27,404 nt of DNA from a virus (taxonomy: Duplodnaviria > Heunggongvirae > Uroviricota > Caudoviricetes): positions 1-27,404 of IMG/VR virus record IMGVR_UViG_3300027819_000008. One strand, 5' to 3'. Below the pieces are notes generated by a model, which did no database searches, had not been told where the DNA came from, and worked only from the letters and a program-made list of their open reading frames with translations. Positions 4,047-19,782 of the stretch are shown here, in pieces. A program made the position numbers and the translations under genes. The first letter of the stretch is position 1. Each line of letters opens with the position of its first letter.

Positions 4047-4117
4047 TGGTGGAGCCGCAGGGAGTTGAACCCTGTCGGGTCGCTTGCAAGGCGTCCCTGG
4101 CACCCGTGACCGGCCCC
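4047..4117 (-). tRNA. tRNA-Ala(TGC) lacking a recognisable D-stem
   Basis: GGGGCCG/CGGCTCC-A-CCA with G3.U70; GGGACGC-CTTGCAA-GCGACCC; CAGGG-TTCAACT-CCCTG; 71 nt. Confidence 0.82.
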
Positions 4118-4287: not shown

Positions 4288-4295
4288 ACGAACCT

Positions 4296-4364
4296 TGGCT
4301 CCTGGAGTCGAACCACGCGCGTGCTGGTTAACAGCCAGCCATGCTACCGCCACATCCGGCAGGA
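4296..4364 (-). pseudogene. tRNA-Asn(GTT) with ~6-nt deletion removing the T-stem/acceptor 3' junction
   Basis: 5' TCCTGCC and GCTGG-CTGTTAA-CCAGC are intact, but the 3' end reads TTCGACT-CCAGGAG-CCA instead of the complementary CCACG-GGCAGGA-G-CCA. Confidence 0.8.
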
Positions 4365-4373
4365 GTGTGTTGC

Positions 4374-11120: not shown

Positions 11121-12071
11121 TCAGCGGCGACTCATCAGCTCTACTAACTTATCCGCTGCAGCGCAATCCTCTTCGTGCAGGCGCCCGTGGAGTTCCTGCG
11201 CGTCCTCAAACCCGAGCACCCGCGCCGTGTCCTCCGGCGTAGCCCTGGGCCAGGTGCGCGGCGCGTCGGGGTCACGGGTCGCCAGCACCGCCCCAAGTAG
11301 ATAGGCGCACACCCGCGAGCGGGCCGCCGGGCCGGCACCATAGATGCCCAAGGCGCGCCGCAGGACCGGCATCGGATGGGCGTAGTGGTAGGCCACCACG
11401 ACGTCCCGCCACGTGAAGGTGACATGGTCGCTCAGCGCGTCCCACGTGCGGCGCACGCGCCGGAGGTCCGCCGGCTCGTCGATGCTCAGCTTGAGAGCGG
11501 ACCAGTCCCCCTCCTGCGGGGGGAGGCGGAGGTTGAACACGCGCGACTCGTGGCGCCACATCCAGGTCGTCACGTGCTCCCGCTCGTCCGCGGCGGCCTC
11601 ACGGTCGGCCCGGAGCAGCAGCTCCGCGCTGAAGACCTCCATGTCGCAGCCGTCGTAGAACGTCGGGGGGTGGTCGTTGGAAGCGTACGCCGCGCCGGTG
11701 GACCGAAAGAGGGCGAGCAGCTCGCCGGCCAGGTTGGGGTCCAGCATCGGGCAGTCGCTGGTGAGGCGCATGATCACGTCGGCCCCGGTCGCGCGCTGGG
11801 CCTCCACGTACCCGGCCAGGACGTCATTCTTCCCCCCGGGCAGGGAGACCTGGCCGCGCGTCCACCCCACCCCCGCCCCGCGGCAGCGGTTGACGATCGC
11901 GTCGTCCCTGACATCGCGGGTCGTCGTCACGTGGACGACGTCCACCCCGGGAATGTGCTTGGCCCGTGCGAGGACGTGCGTCAGCACGGCCTGGCTCCCC
12001 ACGCGGCGAAGGACCTTGCCGGGGAGGCGGCTGCTGCCCATTCTTGCCTGAATGACCGCCGCCACGAGCAT
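11121..12071 (-). CDS. spsF: SpsF-like nonulosonate cytidylyltransferase (CTP_transf_3) with ~85-aa C-terminal extension
   Basis: VIQARMGSSRLPGKVL, DVLAGY, IMRLTSDCPMLDP, GCDMEVFS, EREHVTTWM, LKLSIDEPADL. Confidence 0.9.
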   Translation of the reverse strand: MLVAAVIQARMGSSRLPGKVLRRVGSQAVLTHVLARAKHIPGVDVVHVTTTRDVRDDAIVNRCRGAGVGWTRGQVSLPGGKNDVLAGYVEAQRATGADVIMRLTSDCPMLDPNLAGELLALFRSTGAAYASNDHPPTFYDGCDMEVFSAELLLRADREAAADEREHVTTWMWRHESRVFNLRLPPQEGDWSALKLSIDEPADLRRVRRTWDALSDHVTFTWRDVVVAYHYAHPMPVLRRALGIYGAGPAARSRVCAYLLGAVLATRDPDAPRTWPRATPEDTARVLGFEDAQELHGRLHEEDCAAADKLVELMSRR

Positions 12072-13033
12072 CACGAAACCTCCAGCACGACCTCGCGGCA
12101 CGACACGTCCGCGCCACCGAATCCCCGCTTAAAGAACTCTATGGCCCGCTCCTTGTCGCTGACCGCAGTCCCCTGCCACCCCAGGCTCGCGCAGGTCACG
12201 CCCAGCTCGGCCAAGGCGCGCAAGGCCTCCCACGCGAGCGCGTGCCCGACGTCGGGCGCAGTGTACGCGCCGGAGCTGTAGTACGCGGCCCCCCGGTAGG
12301 CGTTCCAGTACGCGGCGCCCCACGTCCCGGCGGCGTCCTCGGCCACGACCACGAGCGCGAGGCCAGCCGCCAGCCACTCCCGCTGCAGGCGGTAGGTCGC
12401 GTCGGCCCTGGGATGGTTCGTCATCCGGCGGTGGAGAACCACGTACTGGGAGAACAGCGCGGCCGCCGCCTCGGTGTCCCCAGTGGCCGACGAGATCCGG
12501 TACTTGCGCTGCCCCCGGTGAATCAGCGAGCGGTAGGACGCGCGCACCTCCGCCCACGCCGGGACACCGTCCACGACCCGCTGCGCGGCCGCAACGTAGC
12601 GCACTCCCCGGGCGTGCGCGCCGAGGCTCTGGTGGCGCGCGTCACAGAATGGGTGCTCCCAGAACCGCACCTTGCTCACGCCCTGCCGGCGCGCTTGCCG
12701 GCGGAGTTCCTCCAAGGCAAACCCGGCCGCGGTGGGGGAGGACGAGAGTGGGAGCGGCAGCGGGTCCCCGGAGTACGACAGCTCCCTCACCGGACCGGCC
12801 ACCCCGGCCACCCGATCCACGCGATGGACGAGCACAAGAGGGACGACGGCCAGCACCACGCCGTCATCGCTGAGCACCATGAACGAGGCCTGCTCGTTGC
12901 CCGGGCGAAACGCCAGCTGGTAGTGCAGCCACCCGGAGGTGTGCCAGAACCACCCCCCGGGATGGCTCTGCACGTACGCGTCCCACGCCCGCCAGTCACC
13001 GGGGGTGAAGCTGGCTGCCGCGCGAACCCTCAC
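12071..13033 (-). CDS. FemAB-related / GNAT-fold acyltransferase
   Basis: WDAYVQSHPGGWFWHTSGW...LAVVPL; VRASYRSLIHRG; AYYSSGA; ALAWEALRALAELG..ASLG; IEFFKRGFGG. Confidence 0.72.
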   Translation of the reverse strand: MRVRAAASFTPGDWRAWDAYVQSHPGGWFWHTSGWLHYQLAFRPGNEQASFMVLSDDGVVLAVVPLVLVHRVDRVAGVAGPVRELSYSGDPLPLPLSSSPTAAGFALEELRRQARRQGVSKVRFWEHPFCDARHQSLGAHARGVRYVAAAQRVVDGVPAWAEVRASYRSLIHRGQRKYRISSATGDTEAAAALFSQYVVLHRRMTNHPRADATYRLQREWLAAGLALVVVAEDAAGTWGAAYWNAYRGAAYYSSGAYTAPDVGHALAWEALRALAELGVTCASLGWQGTAVSDKERAIEFFKRGFGGADVSCREVVLEVS

Positions 13034-13926
13034 CGGCCCGACGCCACGCGGTAGCGCAAGTACCGGGTCATCGGCTCCTCGGCCGGCATCTGGCTGAGGT
13101 GACCGGCGCCGCAGAGGACCTCGGCCTGCCGGATGTTCGCGACGTAGACCGCGGCCTCCTCGGGCGTGCGCGCCACCTTGAAGTCGGCGTTGTCCTCCCG
13201 CGTCTCGCGGAGCCGCGCGTGGAACTCCACGATGCGCGCCCCGGCCGCGACCGCCAGCGCGCCCGTCATCGGGTGGCGCGTGTGGTCGGAGTAGCCGGCG
13301 AAGTTCACATCCCGGGTGAAATCCGAGAGCAGCGCGCCGAGATTGGCCTGCTCGTCGGGGCAGGGGTAAGCACTGACGCAGTGGAGCAGGCTCAGGTGCT
13401 GTAGCATGTCCAGGTGCCGCGCCGAGAACCTCTCGGCAACCTGCACGTACTGACTGGCCGCCTCCCGGGCGCGCCGGGCCCCGCCCATGCCGGCGCTGAG
13501 GATCACCGGCTTGTCCGGGAAGTCCGCGTGCATCGCGACGAAGTACACGTCGCCCGACTCGAAGCTGCTGACCTTGAATCGCCGCACGTACGGCGCGACG
13601 ACGGCGATGTCCTCCGGCAGGTAGATGGTGCACATGAACTCCAACCCCACGACCTCCGCCGCGAGCTGGAAGACCGTCAGCCACTCGCGGGGGAACGCCA
13701 GCGCGCGGTACGCATCCAGGTAAGGCAGCGCGCGCCGACGCTCGACCAGCCGCTCCGGCGAGGACAGCCACTGGAACTTGACCGCGTCGGCCCCGACGTC
13801 CCGGGCCAGCTTGATCAGGTCCACGGCGCGGTTGATCGCGAACTCGTGGGGGTAGTCGTGGCAGGCCGCGGCCTCCATGATCACGAAGGTCCGGCGCGTC
13901 GTGGTACCCGTGCCGTTGGTGATCAC
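13030..13926 (-). CDS. pseI: Nonulosonic acid synthase (NeuB/PseI family), no C-terminal SAF/AFP domain
   Basis: FVIMEAAACH, GADAVKFQ, FKVSSFE, KPVILSAGM, LLHCVSAYP, GYSDHT, AVAAGARIVEFH; 298 aa. Confidence 0.88.
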   Translation of the reverse strand: MITNGTGTTTRRTFVIMEAAACHDYPHEFAINRAVDLIKLARDVGADAVKFQWLSSPERLVERRRALPYLDAYRALAFPREWLTVFQLAAEVVGLEFMCTIYLPEDIAVVAPYVRRFKVSSFESGDVYFVAMHADFPDKPVILSAGMGGARRAREAASQYVQVAERFSARHLDMLQHLSLLHCVSAYPCPDEQANLGALLSDFTRDVNFAGYSDHTRHPMTGALAVAAGARIVEFHARLRETREDNADFKVARTPEEAAVYVANIRQAEVLCGAGHLSQMPAEEPMTRYLRYRVASGR

Positions 13927-14207
13927 GAGTCGCCTCCCGGCGCCACGTGCCGAACGTCCACGGGGGGTGGCCCGACGCTGGTCGGCAGGATCGCGTGGGT
14001 CAGGTTGCCGGTCACGACGCTGCCCGGCTTGATGTCGCTGCCGGGCGGCACGACGACCTCGATCATGATCTTCCCGCCGTCCTCCACCCGGACCCGACCG
14101 GTCGCCCGCAGCCCCCAGAGGCCGGTGACCCATGCAGCAGAGGTCTGAAACGTCGCCACCTGGATCCCGGCCAGCTTCGCCGGCGCTGAGGCCTTCTCGA
14201 TTGCCAT
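13923..14207 (-). CDS. Hypothetical 94-aa beta-rich protein
   Basis: ATG start, GTGA-coupled to the neuB-like gene; VRVEDGGKIMIEVVVP. Confidence 0.65.
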   Translation of the reverse strand: MAIEKASAPAKLAGIQVATFQTSAAWVTGLWGLRATGRVRVEDGGKIMIEVVVPPGSDIKPGSVVTGNLTHAILPTSVGPPPVDVRHVAPGGDS

Positions 14208-14226
14208 TTATCTACCCGTCTCTTTC

Positions 14227-14454
14227 TTACTTCAGCCAGTCCAGGTGTCTCGGCCAGCTCTGCTTCGGAATGTTGGCCCAGGCGAACGGCACCTCGCGCA
14301 GTGGAACCTCTATCCGTTTGCCCCACGTAACGGGCAACTGCCCTGAGCAAGGACCGCCAGAGGCGCCGCCGTAGAGCAACAACGACCCACCGCCGTCTAG
14401 TACGTTCGGAAAACCGATCAGCGACCCACCACCGTCGAGGACGCAGCCACTCAC
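14227..14454 (-). CDS. Hypothetical 75-aa protein with a VLDGGGSL repeat
   Basis: VSGCVLDGGGSLIGFPNVLDGGGSLLLYGG...; GTGA-coupled to the aminotransferase stop. Confidence 0.55.
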   Translation of the reverse strand: MSGCVLDGGGSLIGFPNVLDGGGSLLLYGGASGGPCSGQLPVTWGKRIEVPLREVPFAWANIPKQSWPRHLDWLK

Positions 14455-15848
14455 TGCGTCGCCCGCCACGGAGGCACGGGGCTGATCGGGTCGCCCTCGA
14501 TCTGGCTCCGCACCGTCCCGTTCTTGATCGCAGTCACCGTTACCTCCATCGCCTCGCGGCACGCCCGCAGCGTCTCCCCGAGCTCCGCGTGCCCGTGCGC
14601 CAGCGACACGTTGAGCCCGTCCGGGTGGAACAGCACGCCGCGCCGGGCACACTCCTGGAAGAACAGCGACGCGCGGTGCCGGTTCTTCTTGGGCGTAATT
14701 GCTATGTGGCCACTGAGCCCAAACGGGCCCTCCTCCACCTCGTCCCACACGATGCGCGGGTGCGGCGGCTGCCCCTCCATGCGCGTCGGCGCGCCGCACA
14801 CCTTGGCCAGCGTGTTGTAACGGTCCATGAGGATTCGCCCGGTGATCCACATGTGACCCGTCACGTCGTCGTGCCAGAGCGCTTTGGTATACGGCGGATG
14901 CAGGATCGGCACCGAAAGAGGTCTCTGCGCGTACCGCTCCATGACGGCCGACGCCGCCGCGAGCCCGACGCAGTCGCCGCCGAAGGTCCCTGACGCGAGG
15001 ACGGCGTGCCGCATGACCTCGGCCCTGCCCACCAGCGCGGCGATCGGGTAGCCGTTGCCCATCCCCTTCCCGAACGTCGCGAGGTCAGGCGTGACGCCGC
15101 AGAGCGCCTGGTACCCGCCGGCGTGCCAGCGGAAGCCGGTCACCATCTCGTCGAAGATCAGGACGGCGCCGATCCTGGTCGCGCGCTCGCGCACGCCCTC
15201 CAGGAAGCCGGGCGCCGGCGCCTCGAACAGCGTCGGCTCCATGATGATGGCCGCGACACCACCCGTTGACGCGACGGACTGCTTGATACGGCCTCCCTCC
15301 ACCCACGCCTGGGGGCCCTCTGCCCAATCAATCGCCTCGTCCAGGGACCCCAGGTCGTTGTACCTGAACGTCCGCACCAGCCCCTTCATGGCCTGCGGCA
15401 CGCCGGGGGAGTGCTCGCGCGTCGCCGCGTACCAGCTGTGCCACGAGTGGTAGCCGCACACGAGCACGACCTCGCGGCCGGTGTGCGCGCGGGCCGTGCG
15501 GATCGCCGCCTCCGTCGCCTCGCTGCCGGTCTTCAGGTAGCGGACGGCCTCGGCGCACGGGATGAGGGCGTGGAGCTGCTCGGCCACGCGCTCCTCCAGC
15601 TTCACGTCGGGCAGCGAGAAGATCGGGCCGCGCTCGACCTGCCGGCGCACGGCCTGGTCCACGTCCAGGTCATGGTAACCGAGGCTGATCGCCCCGAGCG
15701 CGCAGATCCAGTCGATGTAGTTCGCATCGTCCGTGGCTCTGACGCGCGCGCCGCTTGGGAGCGCCCACTTGATTCCGGCCGGGTACGCGCCCGGGAACCT
15801 GGACCTCATCTTGGACAGCGTCTGGGCGCCCCCGACGACTCGGCTCAC
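14451..15848 (-). CDS. Class-III PLP aminotransferase (GSA-aminomutase-like, sugar-cluster type)
   Basis: GGAQTLSK, YIDWICALGAISLGY, KTGSEATEAAIRTAR, GYHSW, IMEP, LIFDEMVTGFR, PDLATFGKGMGNGYPIAALVG, SGTFGG; own GGAGG SD and GTGA overlap at 15848. Confidence 0.9.
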   Translation of the reverse strand: MSRVVGGAQTLSKMRSRFPGAYPAGIKWALPSGARVRATDDANYIDWICALGAISLGYHDLDVDQAVRRQVERGPIFSLPDVKLEERVAEQLHALIPCAEAVRYLKTGSEATEAAIRTARAHTGREVVLVCGYHSWHSWYAATREHSPGVPQAMKGLVRTFRYNDLGSLDEAIDWAEGPQAWVEGGRIKQSVASTGGVAAIIMEPTLFEAPAPGFLEGVRERATRIGAVLIFDEMVTGFRWHAGGYQALCGVTPDLATFGKGMGNGYPIAALVGRAEVMRHAVLASGTFGGDCVGLAAASAVMERYAQRPLSVPILHPPYTKALWHDDVTGHMWITGRILMDRYNTLAKVCGAPTRMEGQPPHPRIVWDEVEEGPFGLSGHIAITPKKNRHRASLFFQECARRGVLFHPDGLNVSLAHGHAELGETLRACREAMEVTVTAIKNGTVRSQIEGDPISPVPPWRATQ

Positions 15849-17027
15849 GGCAGCACCTCCGGTAACTTGAACTCGAAGATCGGAATGTCCTGTGCGTGGC
15901 TCAGCCGCTCGGCCTCCTGGGAGCCGACGTGCACCCACCGGCCCTCCCGTGACACGAGCGGCATGCGCGCGGCACAGGTCGCAGGCGGCGGGCTGAGGTC
16001 CGGCGGCCTTGGGCTGGGGGCCCCCGCCGGTCGTACAGCCCCGGGGGTGGAGTTGCTGCACGACCGAGAGCTCCACGAGCTCAAGCGCCCCGCCGTCCGG
16101 TCGTACCAACCACGCCGGCTCCAGCGTCCACCGCTCCGGCAGCGCCGCGCCGGGCGCGAGCTCCAGCGCCCAGCCGTCACCCAGCCGCCTGACCCGCCCG
16201 AGCGGCGGGAGGCTCAGACTGTGGTGGTCTAGGACGAGGGGGTTCTTGAAGAAGTTCTCCACCAGGATCGGGATGGCGGTGGAGAGCGGAGGACTCGAAC
16301 CTCCCGCCTCAGTAGCTTGCCCCTCGGTCTTGGCACCGAGGGCTGGGCCCGCCTGCGCGGCCGCCCGGCCGCTTGCTCCCCTCGCCCGCTCCCACGCCAG
16401 CAGCACGTCGCCGGCGCCGCACTCGACTAGGCGCACGCCGCCCGAGTCGTCGACCGCGTGGACGTCCCAGATCGTGCGGCGGTCGGCGCCGCCGATGCTG
16501 CCGCCCGCGTTCGTGTGGTGGGGCACGTGCGCGCGGCATAGGTCGCAGCGCTGGCCGGCCACCTGCATGAAGGACATGCCCCACATGCCGAAGACCTGGT
16601 TCCACACCCCACGGTCCCACGCGAACCCCGCGCGCTGGAACGCGCGCTGCGAGGGGACGTTGCCGGAGTGGATGACCGCGAGGAGGTCCCGCGCCCCGAG
16701 GCGCACCGCCTGCTCGGCCGCCATCTGAATCATCGGCGTCGCCAGGCGGTGGCCGCGCCACTCGGGCGCGATCGTGATGCTCACCTCCACCAGGTCGGTC
16801 CCCACGTGGTCCAGCCGATACGTCCCGACGGTCCCGTACATGGCCCGGCTGGCGACCATCAGCCGGCGGTCGGGTGCGCCCAGGGAGGTGCGCAGCCACG
16901 CGAGGTGCTGGACCTCCCGGACGGGCTCGGAAACGACTGACCACTGCAGCGTGCCGGGATCGTTGCGCCACGCCAGCAGGAGCCCCGCGTCGTCTAGGGT
17001 CGCCGGGCGGGCGGTCAGCGCGATCAT
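15845..17027 (-). CDS. PseH-like GNAT N-acetyltransferase fused to a mosaic C-terminal region; coding frame changes near 15964
   Basis: RPATLDDAGLLLAWRND...HLAWLR...VGTYRLD...EVSITIAPEWRGHRLA...IHSGNVPSQRAFQRAGF. The frame continues ~210 aa; codon bias moves at 15964 to the frame (MPLVSREGRWVH...) that ends at TGA 15845. Confidence 0.75.
15964..16548. repeat. 21-nt direct repeat (20/21 identical), 564 bp apart, each encoding CDLCRAH
   Basis: tgcgcgcggcacaggtcgcag (15964-15984) vs tgcgcgcggcataggtcgcag (16528-16548). Confidence 0.85.
16274..16381 (-). ncRNA. tRNA-like element (Ala identity, no canonical anticodon arm) embedded in the ORF
   Basis: GGGGAGC/GCTCTCC-A-CC(G CCA) acceptor with G3.U70; 6-bp arm GCGGCC-GGGC-GGCCGC; CCCTCGGT-GCCAAG-ACCGAGGG; perfect T-arm GGAGG-TTCGAGT-CCTCC. 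Confidence 0.6.
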
Positions 17028-18052
17028 ACCTCGCGCACCATGCGGACAAGCTCCGCCACGTCCAGCCACCGGTGCGGCGCGTCGCTGGTGTAGGCCGCGG
17101 TCCGCCGCACGGAGGTCGGGTGGTCCCAGGCCTCGCGCCACGAATGGTGCGCCGGATAGATGACCGCCTCGGCGAAGTCGTTGGTGTAGCCGTCCAGCAG
17201 GTAGGTGCGCGAAGGCTCTTCGCGGGACAGCAGCGCCTCGTGCAGCTTCTCTCCGCCCGGGCGCAGGCCGACCACGATGCGGGGACCCGCCCGCATCAGT
17301 CCCGCGAACTCCTGCTGCGCGATGCGAGTTCGCCAGTCCCGCTCCACCGCGTCGGCCAGCGCCGACATGGAAGCGGCCGGGAGCAGCGGCACGAAGACCT
17401 CCCCGCCCTCCATGCGCTCGAGCGAGCGCATGACGAAGCGCGCGGCTTGTGAGAGCGTGATGATGAACCGGGTCATCAGCGGGTCCGTGATCGCCAGGGG
17501 CTCCCCGCGCCGCAGCTGGTCACGCCAGACGTGGACCACGCTGCCGCGCGAGCCGAGGACGTTGCCGTAGCGCACGCACGCGACGCGGGTCCCCCGGGGC
17601 TGCGCGTAGGTGTTGCTCTGCACCGCGTAGCACTCCGCGACCGCCTTGCTCATGCCGTAGAGGTTGGTGGCCTCGCAGGCCTTGTCGGAGGACACGACGA
17701 GGACCCGCCCAACACCGACCGCCGTGGCCGCACGAACCACGTTGATTGTCCCCTGCACGTTGGTCTTGACGATCTCCTCCGGGGAGTAGACCGAGTGGCC
17801 GATCCGCTTCAGCGCGGCCGCGTGGACCACGACGTCGCAGCCCCGGAAGACCTCCTCCAGGCGCTGCTCGTCGCGCACGTCGGCCAGCTGGCACTTCAGC
17901 GGCGCGTAGTCCGCGTACCGCTCGGCGAGGTCCCCGCCCTTGACCTCGTCCCGGGACAGCGCGACCAGGCGCGTCACCGGCCAGCGCTCGCGCAGCAGCT
18001 CGATCAGCGCCCCACCCAGCGACCCCGTCGCGCCCGTGATGGCGATCTTCAC
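17024..18052 (-). CDS. pseB: UDP-GlcNAc 4,6-dehydratase (inverting), PseB/FlaA1 family
   Basis: ITGATGSLG, ALSRDEVK, VVHAAALK, KTNVQGT, VSSDKACEATNLYGMSK, VRYGNVLGSRGSVV, ITDPLMTRF, GGEVFVP, GLRPGGEKLHE. Confidence 0.93.
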   Translation of the reverse strand: MKIAITGATGSLGGALIELLRERWPVTRLVALSRDEVKGGDLAERYADYAPLKCQLADVRDEQRLEEVFRGCDVVVHAAALKRIGHSVYSPEEIVKTNVQGTINVVRAATAVGVGRVLVVSSDKACEATNLYGMSKAVAECYAVQSNTYAQPRGTRVACVRYGNVLGSRGSVVHVWRDQLRRGEPLAITDPLMTRFIITLSQAARFVMRSLERMEGGEVFVPLLPAASMSALADAVERDWRTRIAQQEFAGLMRAGPRIVVGLRPGGEKLHEALLSREEPSRTYLLDGYTNDFAEAVIYPAHHSWREAWDHPTSVRRTAAYTSDAPHRWLDVAELVRMVREV

Positions 18053-18984: not shown

Positions 18985-19782
18985 TTAACCCAGCGTCCCC
19001 CGTGCCCACTCCCCGACCTTGCGCTCCAGATCCTGAACGGACCCATCGTTGACGAACTCGTGGTCCCACCCGGTGTACGTCCGGCAGAAGTCCTCGCTGA
19101 CGTGCGCCGCGCCGGCGTTGTTGATGGCGGAGACGTGACCCGGCCGCACGACGCGGACGACCAGCCCCCCGAGCGCGCGGACAGCCGCGGCCTCGTTGAG
19201 GAAGCGCACGTCCGGGGTCACCACGCGCTCCAGCTTGGTGGCGGAGACGTGACCCGGCCGCACGACGCGGACGACCAGCCCCCCGAGCGCGCGGACAGCC
19301 GCGGCCTCGTTGAGGAAGCGCACGTCCGGGGTCACCACGCGCTCCAGCTTGGTGGCGGCCTCCGCATACCGCTTGACCCAGTAGTCCGGATCGTCGTGCC
19401 GCCGGACCTCCGTCCCGTACTCCTGCAGCAGGCGCCGCACGGTCGGGCGCTTGTGCTCCCAGACCTCCCACCGCAGGCGCCGGCCCCACCACGCCTCGTC
19501 CTTATCCAACTCCCGGCGCCATAGCAGGTCGTCGGGAACAGTTCGCTTCATGGAAGTGTGGCCGCCGGCGGCTGAGTATGCCAGCATCGGGGTCGCGTCG
19601 TGGTAGTCGCTGTAGATGGCCGAGCGCACGACCTCCTTGAGGGTCAGGCGCAGGCGTCCCATAATTTCCCAGCGCAACGCGTCTGACATGCGCAGGACTG
19701 TGAACCCATGCTCCCGCCGGAGGTACCCGGCGATGACGTCCTTGCCGTGCTCCATCTCTCCACCGATGCCGACGACAACCAT
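18985..19782 (-). CDS. Deoxynucleoside-monophosphate kinase-like protein with a 38-aa internal duplication
   Basis: VGIGGEMEHGKDVIA P-loop, MSDALR, RRLLQEYGTEVRR, DYWV, VTPDVRFLNEA (x2), HVSE, VNDGSVQDL. Confidence 0.88.
   Translation of the reverse strand: MVVVGIGGEMEHGKDVIAGYLRREHGFTVLRMSDALRWEIMGRLRLTLKEVVRSAIYSDYHDATPMLAYSAAGGHTSMKRTVPDDLLWRRELDKDEAWWGRRLRWEVWEHKRPTVRRLLQEYGTEVRRHDDPDYWVKRYAEAATKLERVVTPDVRFLNEAAAVRALGGLVVRVVRPGHVSATKLERVVTPDVRFLNEAAAVRALGGLVVRVVRPGHVSAINNAGAAHVSEDFCRTYTGWDHEFVNDGSVQDLERKVGEWARGTLG
19125..19358. repeat. Perfect 114-bp tandem duplication (2 copies + 6 bp)
   Basis: 19125-19238 is identical to 19239-19352; bounded by the TGGCGG microhomology at 19125, 19239 and 19353. 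Confidence 0.97.

Follow-up and report, generated by a model that had tools for sequence, protein, structure and literature searches.

A FemX-like enzyme and a tRNA-Ala-derived element in the nonulosonate gene cluster of a groundwater phage

Introduction

Staphylococci retain a non-proteinogenic tRNA-Gly for their FemABX enzymes, and alanyl-tRNA synthetase (AlaRS) charges minihelices and transfer-messenger RNA (tmRNA). Both precedents bear on a 27,404-nt stretch of phage DNA (the window), the first 27.4 kb of the 100.76-kb IMG/VR record IMGVR_UViG_3300027819_000008, which carries a gene for a FemAB-related protein (P0002) and a tRNA-like element (TLE). An initial annotation had joined the two into one system, in which the RNA would be charged by the AlaRS of the host and would donate alanine to a sugar amino group. 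The reading favoured here, with a probability of about 0.58, is that the FemX-like enzyme and the TLE are two separate things, neighbours by happenstance.

The chemistry itself has parallels. In a passage citing Maruyama et al. 2016, PMC12945691 gives a precedent for the Fem-type aminoacylation of an amino sugar. Legionaminic acid carrying an alanyl group exists (PMC7371886), and there are numerous records of N-alanyl amino sugars (PMC7371886, PMC3210612).

A FemX-like enzyme in a sugar pathway

The gene at 12071-13033 (minus strand) encodes a protein of 320 aa, has the GC content at third codon positions (GC3) of a coding sequence, and begins with a GTG that overlaps the stop codon of the NeuB-like gene. 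By sequence, P0002 is a weak match to curated models. It matches Pfam Acetyltransf_6 (PF13480) with an E-value of 1e-4 and 22.8 bits (cut-off 22), and FemAB-family models with E-values of 1e-5 to 5e-5 at scores well below their cut-offs (TIGR04421, 25 bits against 250; TIGR03019, 22.5 bits against 260), while Pfam FemAB (PF02388) gives no match to P0002. The family is also absent from PHROGs.

An alignment of 14 family members formed the basis of a structural model and of a family profile. The AlphaFold2 model (predicted local distance difference test score, pLDDT, 91.7; predicted template-modelling score, pTM, 0.89) consists of two tandem GNAT domains with one substrate cleft, which bears out the FemAB relationship and the two-GNAT Fem fold of the initial annotation. 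Compared with the PDB by Foldseek, its best 14 matches are all aminoacyl-tRNA-dependent transferases. FemX of Weissella viridescens ranks first (E 1.7e-14, template-modelling score, TM, 0.60), and FemA (E 1.9e-10), L-PGS/A-PGS, MprF and Sbb17/Sba18 are also top matches, whereas tandem GNATs using acetyl-CoA rank below the Fem-type matches with TM values of 0.38-0.48.

The family profile likewise finds FemX in the PDB (E 4e-4, residues 52-291) and aligns R209 of P0002 with FemX R211. Near its C-terminus P0002 reads F301-K302-R-G-F-G-G, part of a conserved F-K-x-G-F-G-G motif in which the lysine position holds K in 12/14 homologues and R in 2/14. The printed hidden Markov model (HMM) alignment ends at FemX residue 300/301, short of F304-K305; extended beyond that point, it would probably place the F-K-x-G-F motif on F304-K305. 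A phmmer search of the PDB with the C-terminal 96 residues of P0002 returned noise only.

Together with the documented N-alanyl sugars, the FemX-type fold and matches make the prediction of a sugar-amine aminoacyl transferase well founded: P0002 is probably a FemX-like, aminoacyl-tRNA-dependent enzyme acting on a sugar amine. It would take an amino acid from an ordinary charged tRNA, of the host or of the phage, and attach it to a free amino group, either of the nonulosonate or of a precursor, so that an N-aminoacyl sugar results.

A tRNA-like element with an intact top half

The TLE (16274-16381, minus strand; the tRNA-derived stretch proper is 16277-16381) has helices that span positions 16381 to 16280. 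Its perfect 7-bp acceptor stem (GGGGAGC/GCUCUCC) contains G3.U70 and G2-C71 and is followed by A73, and its T arm (GGAGG-UUCGAGU-CCUCC, with a 5-bp stem and G53-C61) is identical at 17/17 positions to the T arm of the phage's tRNA-Trp. The D position is occupied by a palindromic hairpin of 6 bp and 4 nt. In place of the 5-bp/7-nt anticodon arm there is an 8-bp/6-nt hairpin between unpaired stretches. Downstream of the acceptor the tail reads A-CCG-CCA, down to 16274, and A73 thus lacks a directly encoded CCA; with a 3' end of ACCG instead of ACCA, the RNA would require trimming and a CCA-adding enzyme.

Standard searches pass over this element. ARAGORN does not call it at default settings and, at a low threshold, forces it into tRNA calls by means of 7-nt 'introns'. 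The Rfam tRNA model RF00005 does not match it even at an E-value of 10, and the best Rfam match is tRNA-Sec (20.1 bits against a threshold of 47, E 0.28). Neither program calls a tmRNA, and the RNA, at about 105 nt, contains no pseudoknots and no tag reading frame. The strict pattern of a T arm plus a 7-bp acceptor is nevertheless expected only 0.057 times per shuffled 100-kb genome, before G3.U70 and A73 are demanded, which marks the element as tRNA-derived and not as a chance fold. The initial description, a tRNA-like RNA with G3.U70 and A73 and no normal anticodon arm, therefore holds. The element shows no codon periodicity (GC content of.75/.80/.69 at codon positions 1/2/3), while both flanks are periodic; 25/36 of its third positions are G or C, compared with a GC3 of 0.93-0.95 for the genes on either side (p 2e-5).

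The TLE can be traced to tRNA arrays. The array of this phage (3039-4709; ARAGORN, Rfam) contains, between tRNA-Cys and tRNA-Lys, an uncalled 68-nt tRNA-Ala(UGC) with encoded CCA (4047-4117, minus strand). This tRNA has G3.U70, A73, the anticodon loop CUUGCAA and normal anticodon and T arms, with just 13 unpaired nucleotides at the site of the D arm. An alternative ARAGORN register at the same position was rejected, as it takes its CCA from tRNA-Lys and has two acceptor mismatches. The block GGUGCCA-N10-GCAAGC occurs at the same spacing in the TLE and in this tRNA-Ala (18/26 identical). Its ten central bases differ in the TLE, so that the old anticodon stem is unpaired and its 5' strand pairs instead with upstream bases gained by insertion.

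When 185,579 species genomes were scanned for the TLE acceptor, 15 matches emerged, nine of which ARAGORN at a lowered threshold identifies as tRNA-Ala (eight of them UGC). Seven of the nine lie inside arrays of 9 to 29 tRNA genes, and some are of the short, 68-69-nt type. The acceptor GGGGAGC/GCUCUCC-A is identical to that of the array tRNA-Ala(UGC) in the metagenome-assembled genomes (MAGs) L034, L036 and L042. These are Polyangia/Myxococcales MAGs, whose tRNA arrays contain 68-69-nt tRNA-Ala genes akin to that at 4047-4117. Judged by sequence, the TLE is a derivative of an array-type tRNA-Ala(UGC), with the tRNA-Ala at 4047-4117 as likely kin. Its AlaRS identity set (G3.U70, A73, G2-C71) is thus inherited and not accidental, and charging is predicted. 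Since a top half of this type suffices for RNase P, the CCA-adding enzyme and AlaRS, the TLE, if transcribed, is likely to be excised and charged; after its release by RNase P and 3'-end maturation, alanylation would be probable.

In the favoured reading, the TLE would have arrived within an insertion of about 0.5 kb as a derivative of a short array-type tRNA-Ala(UGC). It would have kept the acceptor/T minihelix and lost the anticodon-stem pairing and U33, with a 35-nt palindromic insert replacing the D region, and would now be a passenger relic.

Exact and gapped TLE patterns found nothing in IMG/VR. A metagenome collection yielded one match, an intergenic 77-nt RNA on a phage-like contig (L007, 588-664, plus strand) that resembles the tRNA-like domain of tmRNA alone, with GGGGAGC, the D-loop motif GGGUUCGAC, one hairpin, a T arm, G3.U70 and no mRNA part. 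It was rejected as evidence for a TLE family because the acceptor match was merely demanded by the search pattern. A 22-mer from the 3' half of the TLE is absent from the 185,579 species genomes; on this ground, an origin of the TLE as an attP copy from the end of a known host tRNA or tmRNA was rejected.

Three further tRNA-like signals were seen in the whole record (G000). At 100080-100152 (minus strand, outside the window) ARAGORN reports a 'tRNA-???' whose anticodon loop has 8 nt (CUCUUGGA); the loop GCCAAG of the TLE hairpin could pair with CUUGG(C), a complementarity that is possibly due to chance. Another ARAGORN call, made at a low threshold, is a 'tRNA-Ala with intron' at 100282-100389, a false positive inside a gene with a GC3 of 0.94-0.98. 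In a gap of the tRNA array, positions 4288-4373 of the window (minus strand) include the anticodon arm GCUGG-CUGUUAA-CCAGC (GUU, Asn); both the T stem and the acceptor are defective here, and ARAGORN makes a call in mitochondrial mode only.

A lineage-specific insertion

The TLE lies within an 896-codon open reading frame (ORF; 14451-17141) that holds in one frame GNAT-X, the TLE, the orphan ORF Y, a 113-nt stretch and the aminotransferase. GNAT-X (16386-17027, minus strand; Pfam Acetyltransf_3, E 1e-15) joins a PseH-like GNAT to an X domain of about 50 aa (CxxC..HHTN..GSIGG) and has no stop codon of its own. Along the run-on frame, GC3 is 0.95-0.97 in GNAT-X, 0.89 in ORF Y (15985-16262, minus strand, in the GNAT-X frame) and 0.38 in the 113-nt stretch. 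ORF Y has no Shine-Dalgarno sequence, no homologue and no Pfam or PHROG match. The 113-nt stretch contains a 39-codon ORF in another frame (15845-15964, minus strand, GC3 about 0.9). The stop codon of this ORF, a TGA, overlaps with the GTG that starts the class-III (GSA-aminomutase-like) aminotransferase (14451-15848, minus strand; Pfam Aminotran_3, E 3e-35; NF004856, 268 bits). This start is preceded by its own GGAGG, and the N-terminus aligns with independent starts in the related contigs L002 and L004.

Comparison with relatives places the junction in context. In L004, GNAT-X is likewise fused and ends at a stop about 20 codons past its AWER motif, with an unrelated 270-aa ORF before the aminotransferase. 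The X domain adjoins the aminotransferase in L002 and L006, and the GNAT adjoins it in the P0012 contig. The varied junction is thus an insertion hot spot, with the TLE block specific to one lineage. By this comparison, the TLE, ORF Y and the 39-codon ORF form an insertion of about 0.5 kb peculiar to this phage, which displaced the X tail and its stop codon. The loss of the GNAT-X stop accounts for the run-on ORF of 858-896 aa reported by gene callers.

Two copies of a 21-nt direct repeat, 20/21 identical and 564 nt apart, enclose the X C-terminus, the TLE and ORF Y. Copy 1 (16528-16548) codes for CDLCRAH, where the X domain begins, and copy 2 (15964-15984) lies at the end of ORF Y. An integrated 564-bp circle and a target-site duplication were both rejected, as they conflict with the ancestral GNAT-X of L004 and with the native X C-terminus. 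An intein, considered for the in-frame, stop-free 564-nt block, was rejected because there is no Hint domain and the TLE lacks codon bias.

The X domain (CxxC..HHTN..GSIGG..EC..) has no Pfam match and always stands just upstream of a class-III aminotransferase. It was located at 16386-16547 (minus strand) of the window, 7397-7558 of L002, 4995-5117 of L004 and 5763-5912 of L006. Its partner is the GNAT here and in L004 and the cytidine monophosphate (CMP)-transferase in L006; in L002 it is part of a separate small ORF, joined to neither of these.

Related clusters keep the enzyme and lack the RNA

The Fem-like gene is present in six related sugar clusters (L002/G001, L003, L004/G002, L005/G003, L013 and the P0012 contig), with protein identities of 32-59%. 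In every related cluster fetched it sits between NeuB, or the aminotransferase, and the CMP-transferase. The same RNA fold, for which the initial annotation had suggested a search beside FemAB/pseB homologues in other viral contigs, occurs in none of the six (0/6; ARAGORN, Rfam at E <= 1 and an acceptor/T scan). The homologous clusters thus lack the RNA, an outcome that the initial annotation had itself named as a refutation. This weakens the idea of a dedicated donor; absence in relatives is no proof that the RNA is idle here.

Whole records were searched as well. The complete 91-kb genome G002, which has terminal repeats, contains neither a tRNA of any kind nor a tRNA-like element, and the sole result in G001 is a doubtful ARAGORN call. 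G003 has one tRNA-Met and, 10 kb from the cluster, an odd 101-nt tRNA-like element. The latter (L009 1501-1601, equal to G003 15354-15454, minus strand; RF00005, 18 bits) differs in its 9-bp acceptor and its branched middle, though its T arm is normal; it lacks G3.U70 and is unrelated to the TLE. An HMM of the Fem-like family found no match in 16 bacterial and metagenome loci with odd Ala-acceptor RNAs.

Separate or coupled

Several points weigh against a chance neighbourhood and a relic. The top half of the TLE is flawless (12/12 helix pairs, a canonical T loop and G53-C61) and its bottom half is wrecked, a combination expected under selection for a non-decoding, acceptor-only role. Two non-canonical RNAs with alanine identity, the TLE and the tRNA-Ala without a D arm at 4047-4117, may together with a FemX-like enzyme exceed coincidence. 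Weissella FemX uses Ala-tRNA and contacts mainly its acceptor stem (PMC12945691). The closest available relatives are merely 40-60% identical in protein, which leaves room for a young functional innovation in this lineage. Finally, with no stop codon upstream, a pure relic leaves the end of GNAT-X translation unexplained. Efficient excision of the TLE would, for its part, leave a GNAT-X message without a stop codon, which weighs against excision.

An unlikely alternative is that the TLE punctuates the operon transcript, its top half serving as an RNase P/RNase Z substrate at which the RNA is cut between GNAT-X and the downstream genes. RNase P requires just an acceptor/T minihelix, which the TLE has, and the element is non-coding by composition. 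Such a mark would be the protein-enzyme counterpart of the phage's self-cleaving ribozymes. At least four type-P5 twister ribozymes score above the Rfam gathering threshold between genes on the same strand of G000, at about 42.3-47.8 kb (L043 1362-1419, 2939-3001, 5250-5308 and 6786-6845; minus strand in G000), and operon-RNA cutting therefore belongs to the biology of this phage. However, a cut 5' of the TLE strips GNAT-X of a stop codon, the relatives do without the element, and an acceptor/T scan of this genome found no second tRNA-like punctuation element outside the array.

It is rather improbable that the TLE is the dedicated donor of the initial annotation: excised, completed with CCA, charged by the AlaRS of the host through G3.U70 and A73, excluded from translation by its missing anticodon arm, and used as alanine donor by the FemX-like enzyme to give an N-alanyl nonulosonate. 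Parts of this proposal stand, namely the FemX-type fold of the enzyme (with a motif that probably corresponds to F304-K305) and an intact acceptor/T minihelix with an alanine identity set, which descends from tRNA-Ala. Alanyl nonulosonates exist, and the charging of minihelices by AlaRS and the staphylococcal tRNA-Gly are general precedents. The 'same sugar operon' of that annotation is likewise putative. The TLE lies on the same strand as the Fem-like gene, 3.2 kb upstream and in one nonulosonate gene run, but there is a 243-nt gap between TLE and Fem-like gene with a weak terminator-like site (14434-14419), found by a sigma-70 promoter/terminator scan that was otherwise uninformative.

Against a dedicated donor, six homologous clusters have the enzyme without the RNA, one of them in a complete phage genome free of tRNA, and none of the 16 other odd Ala-acceptor RNAs has a Fem-like gene nearby. 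The TLE itself belongs, along with an orphan ORF, to an insertion found in this phage only. Its encoded 3' end is ACCG and not ACCA, and because there is no stop codon between it and the upstream gene, excision would leave a non-stop mRNA. Conservation does not favour the enzyme-RNA pair as a dedicated system, which is accordingly a doubtful proposition. A wider version, in which the phage makes its own non-decoding alanine carriers (the TLE and perhaps the array tRNA-Ala without a D arm), has them charged by AlaRS and uses them to N-alanylate the nonulosonate, appears equally improbable.

That GNAT-X, 36 TLE-encoded residues and Y form one real polypeptide, with the tRNA DNA exapted as a flexible linker and the RNA fold vestigial, is just as hard to credit. 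In its favour, the three share one stop-free frame, Y is without a Shine-Dalgarno sequence and shows no obvious start, the Ala/Gly/Pro/Ser-rich translation of the TLE resembles an interdomain linker and the sequence recurs in three assemblies. However, these assemblies come from one groundwater sample and are hence not independent, the strong GC3 bias seen in all real genes of this phage is missing from the TLE (p 2e-5), the frame is open only through the stretch with a GC3 of 0.38, and an open frame over 108 nt at 75% GC is expected about half the time by chance.

Genomic context

The record is rated complete and comes from a groundwater metagenome; its GC content is 70%, and GC3 frame analysis assigns essentially all genes to the minus strand. 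On this strand, a gene run for a nonulosonate of the pseudaminic/legionaminic type extends from 18052 down to 11121. It opens with a PseB-like UDP-GlcNAc 4,6-dehydratase (17024-18052; TIGR03589, E 4e-79). GNAT-X and the aminotransferase follow, then a 94-aa ORF listed between the aminotransferase and NeuB, a NeuB/PseI-like nonulosonate synthase (13030-13926), the Fem-like gene and a CMP-sugar cytidylyltransferase (PseF/KdsB-like, the CMP-transferase; 11121-12071). The aminotransferase is of class III and not of the DegT/PseC type, a pattern common to all related phage clusters, and no PseG-like hydrolase was recognised in this cluster or in any of the related ones.

In the INPHARED phage collection, DNA searches for both near and distant similarity gave no match. 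Among sequencing runs, none of RNA is listed as containing the stretch. Contigs from two DNA runs, both of the groundwater sample that is its probable source, contain it identically and without joints. Two other assemblies (L010 and L011) are 99.99-100% identical to it; they derive from the same sample and thus offer no independent variation.

Two repeats were observed in passing. A 114-nt tandem repeat (2.1 copies, 99% identical) lies at 19121-19358 of the window, within a deoxynucleotide-monophosphate-kinase-like gene. In the related groundwater phage L013, a non-coding array at 2558-2834, between the aminotransferase and the Fem-like gene, comprises 7.7 copies of a 36-nt unit in which the conserved 10-mers GAGAGCACCA and GAGCGAGCCA alternate with variable spacers between them.

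Implications

Read conservatively, the FemX-fold enzyme is a constant component of a nonulosonate pathway carried by phages, and its family, which PHROGs do not cover, is a concrete candidate for the missing enzyme class that makes N-aminoacyl sialic-acid-like sugars. The 858-896-aa 'fusion protein' of public gene calls would then be an artefact of an insertion with a tRNA relic. Should the TLE be a dedicated donor after all, it would mark the first case of an anticodon-less aminoacyl carrier that is encoded by a virus and devoted to glycan chemistry; with alanine carriers of its own, the phage would decorate its sugar during infection independently of the tRNA pool used in translation.

Comparison with known systems

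FemX of W. viridescens (UDP-MurNAc-pentapeptide:L-alanine transferase; PDB 1ne9, 4ii9) is the best structural and profile match of P0002. Both are tandem-GNAT proteins of about 320-335 aa without a coiled-coil arm. They are only 13-14% identical, and P0002 belongs to a phage nonulosonate pathway rather than to peptidoglycan synthesis. Sbb17 and Sba18, Orf11-type enzymes of streptothricin-type pathways (PDB 9wqw-9wqy; PMC12945691), are Fem-fold proteins that transfer an amino acid from aminoacyl-tRNA to an amino sugar. Both rank with the top structural matches of P0002 and also match its C-terminal profile, but serve antibiotic biosynthesis in Streptomyces, use a Gly donor and involve no nonulosonate.

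For the RNA, the staphylococcal non-proteinogenic tRNA-Gly of FemXAB offers the parallel of a tRNA kept for cell-surface chemistry and not for translation. That tRNA is a complete cloverleaf with an anticodon and is conserved across strains, whereas the TLE lacks both an anticodon arm and conservation among relatives. The tRNA-like domain of tmRNA and the minihelices chargeable by AlaRS share with the TLE an acceptor/T top half, G3.U70, A73 and the lack of an anticodon. In contrast to tmRNA, the TLE has no D-loop motif, pseudoknots or tag ORF, and its sequence kinship is with tRNA-Ala(UGC). The short array-type tRNA-Ala(UGC) has an acceptor identical to that of the TLE in L034, L036 and L042 and the same type of T loop. 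The TLE differs from it in its 35-nt palindromic insert, in the absence of anticodon-stem pairing and of U33, and in its location, 12 kb from the array and within the sugar cluster.

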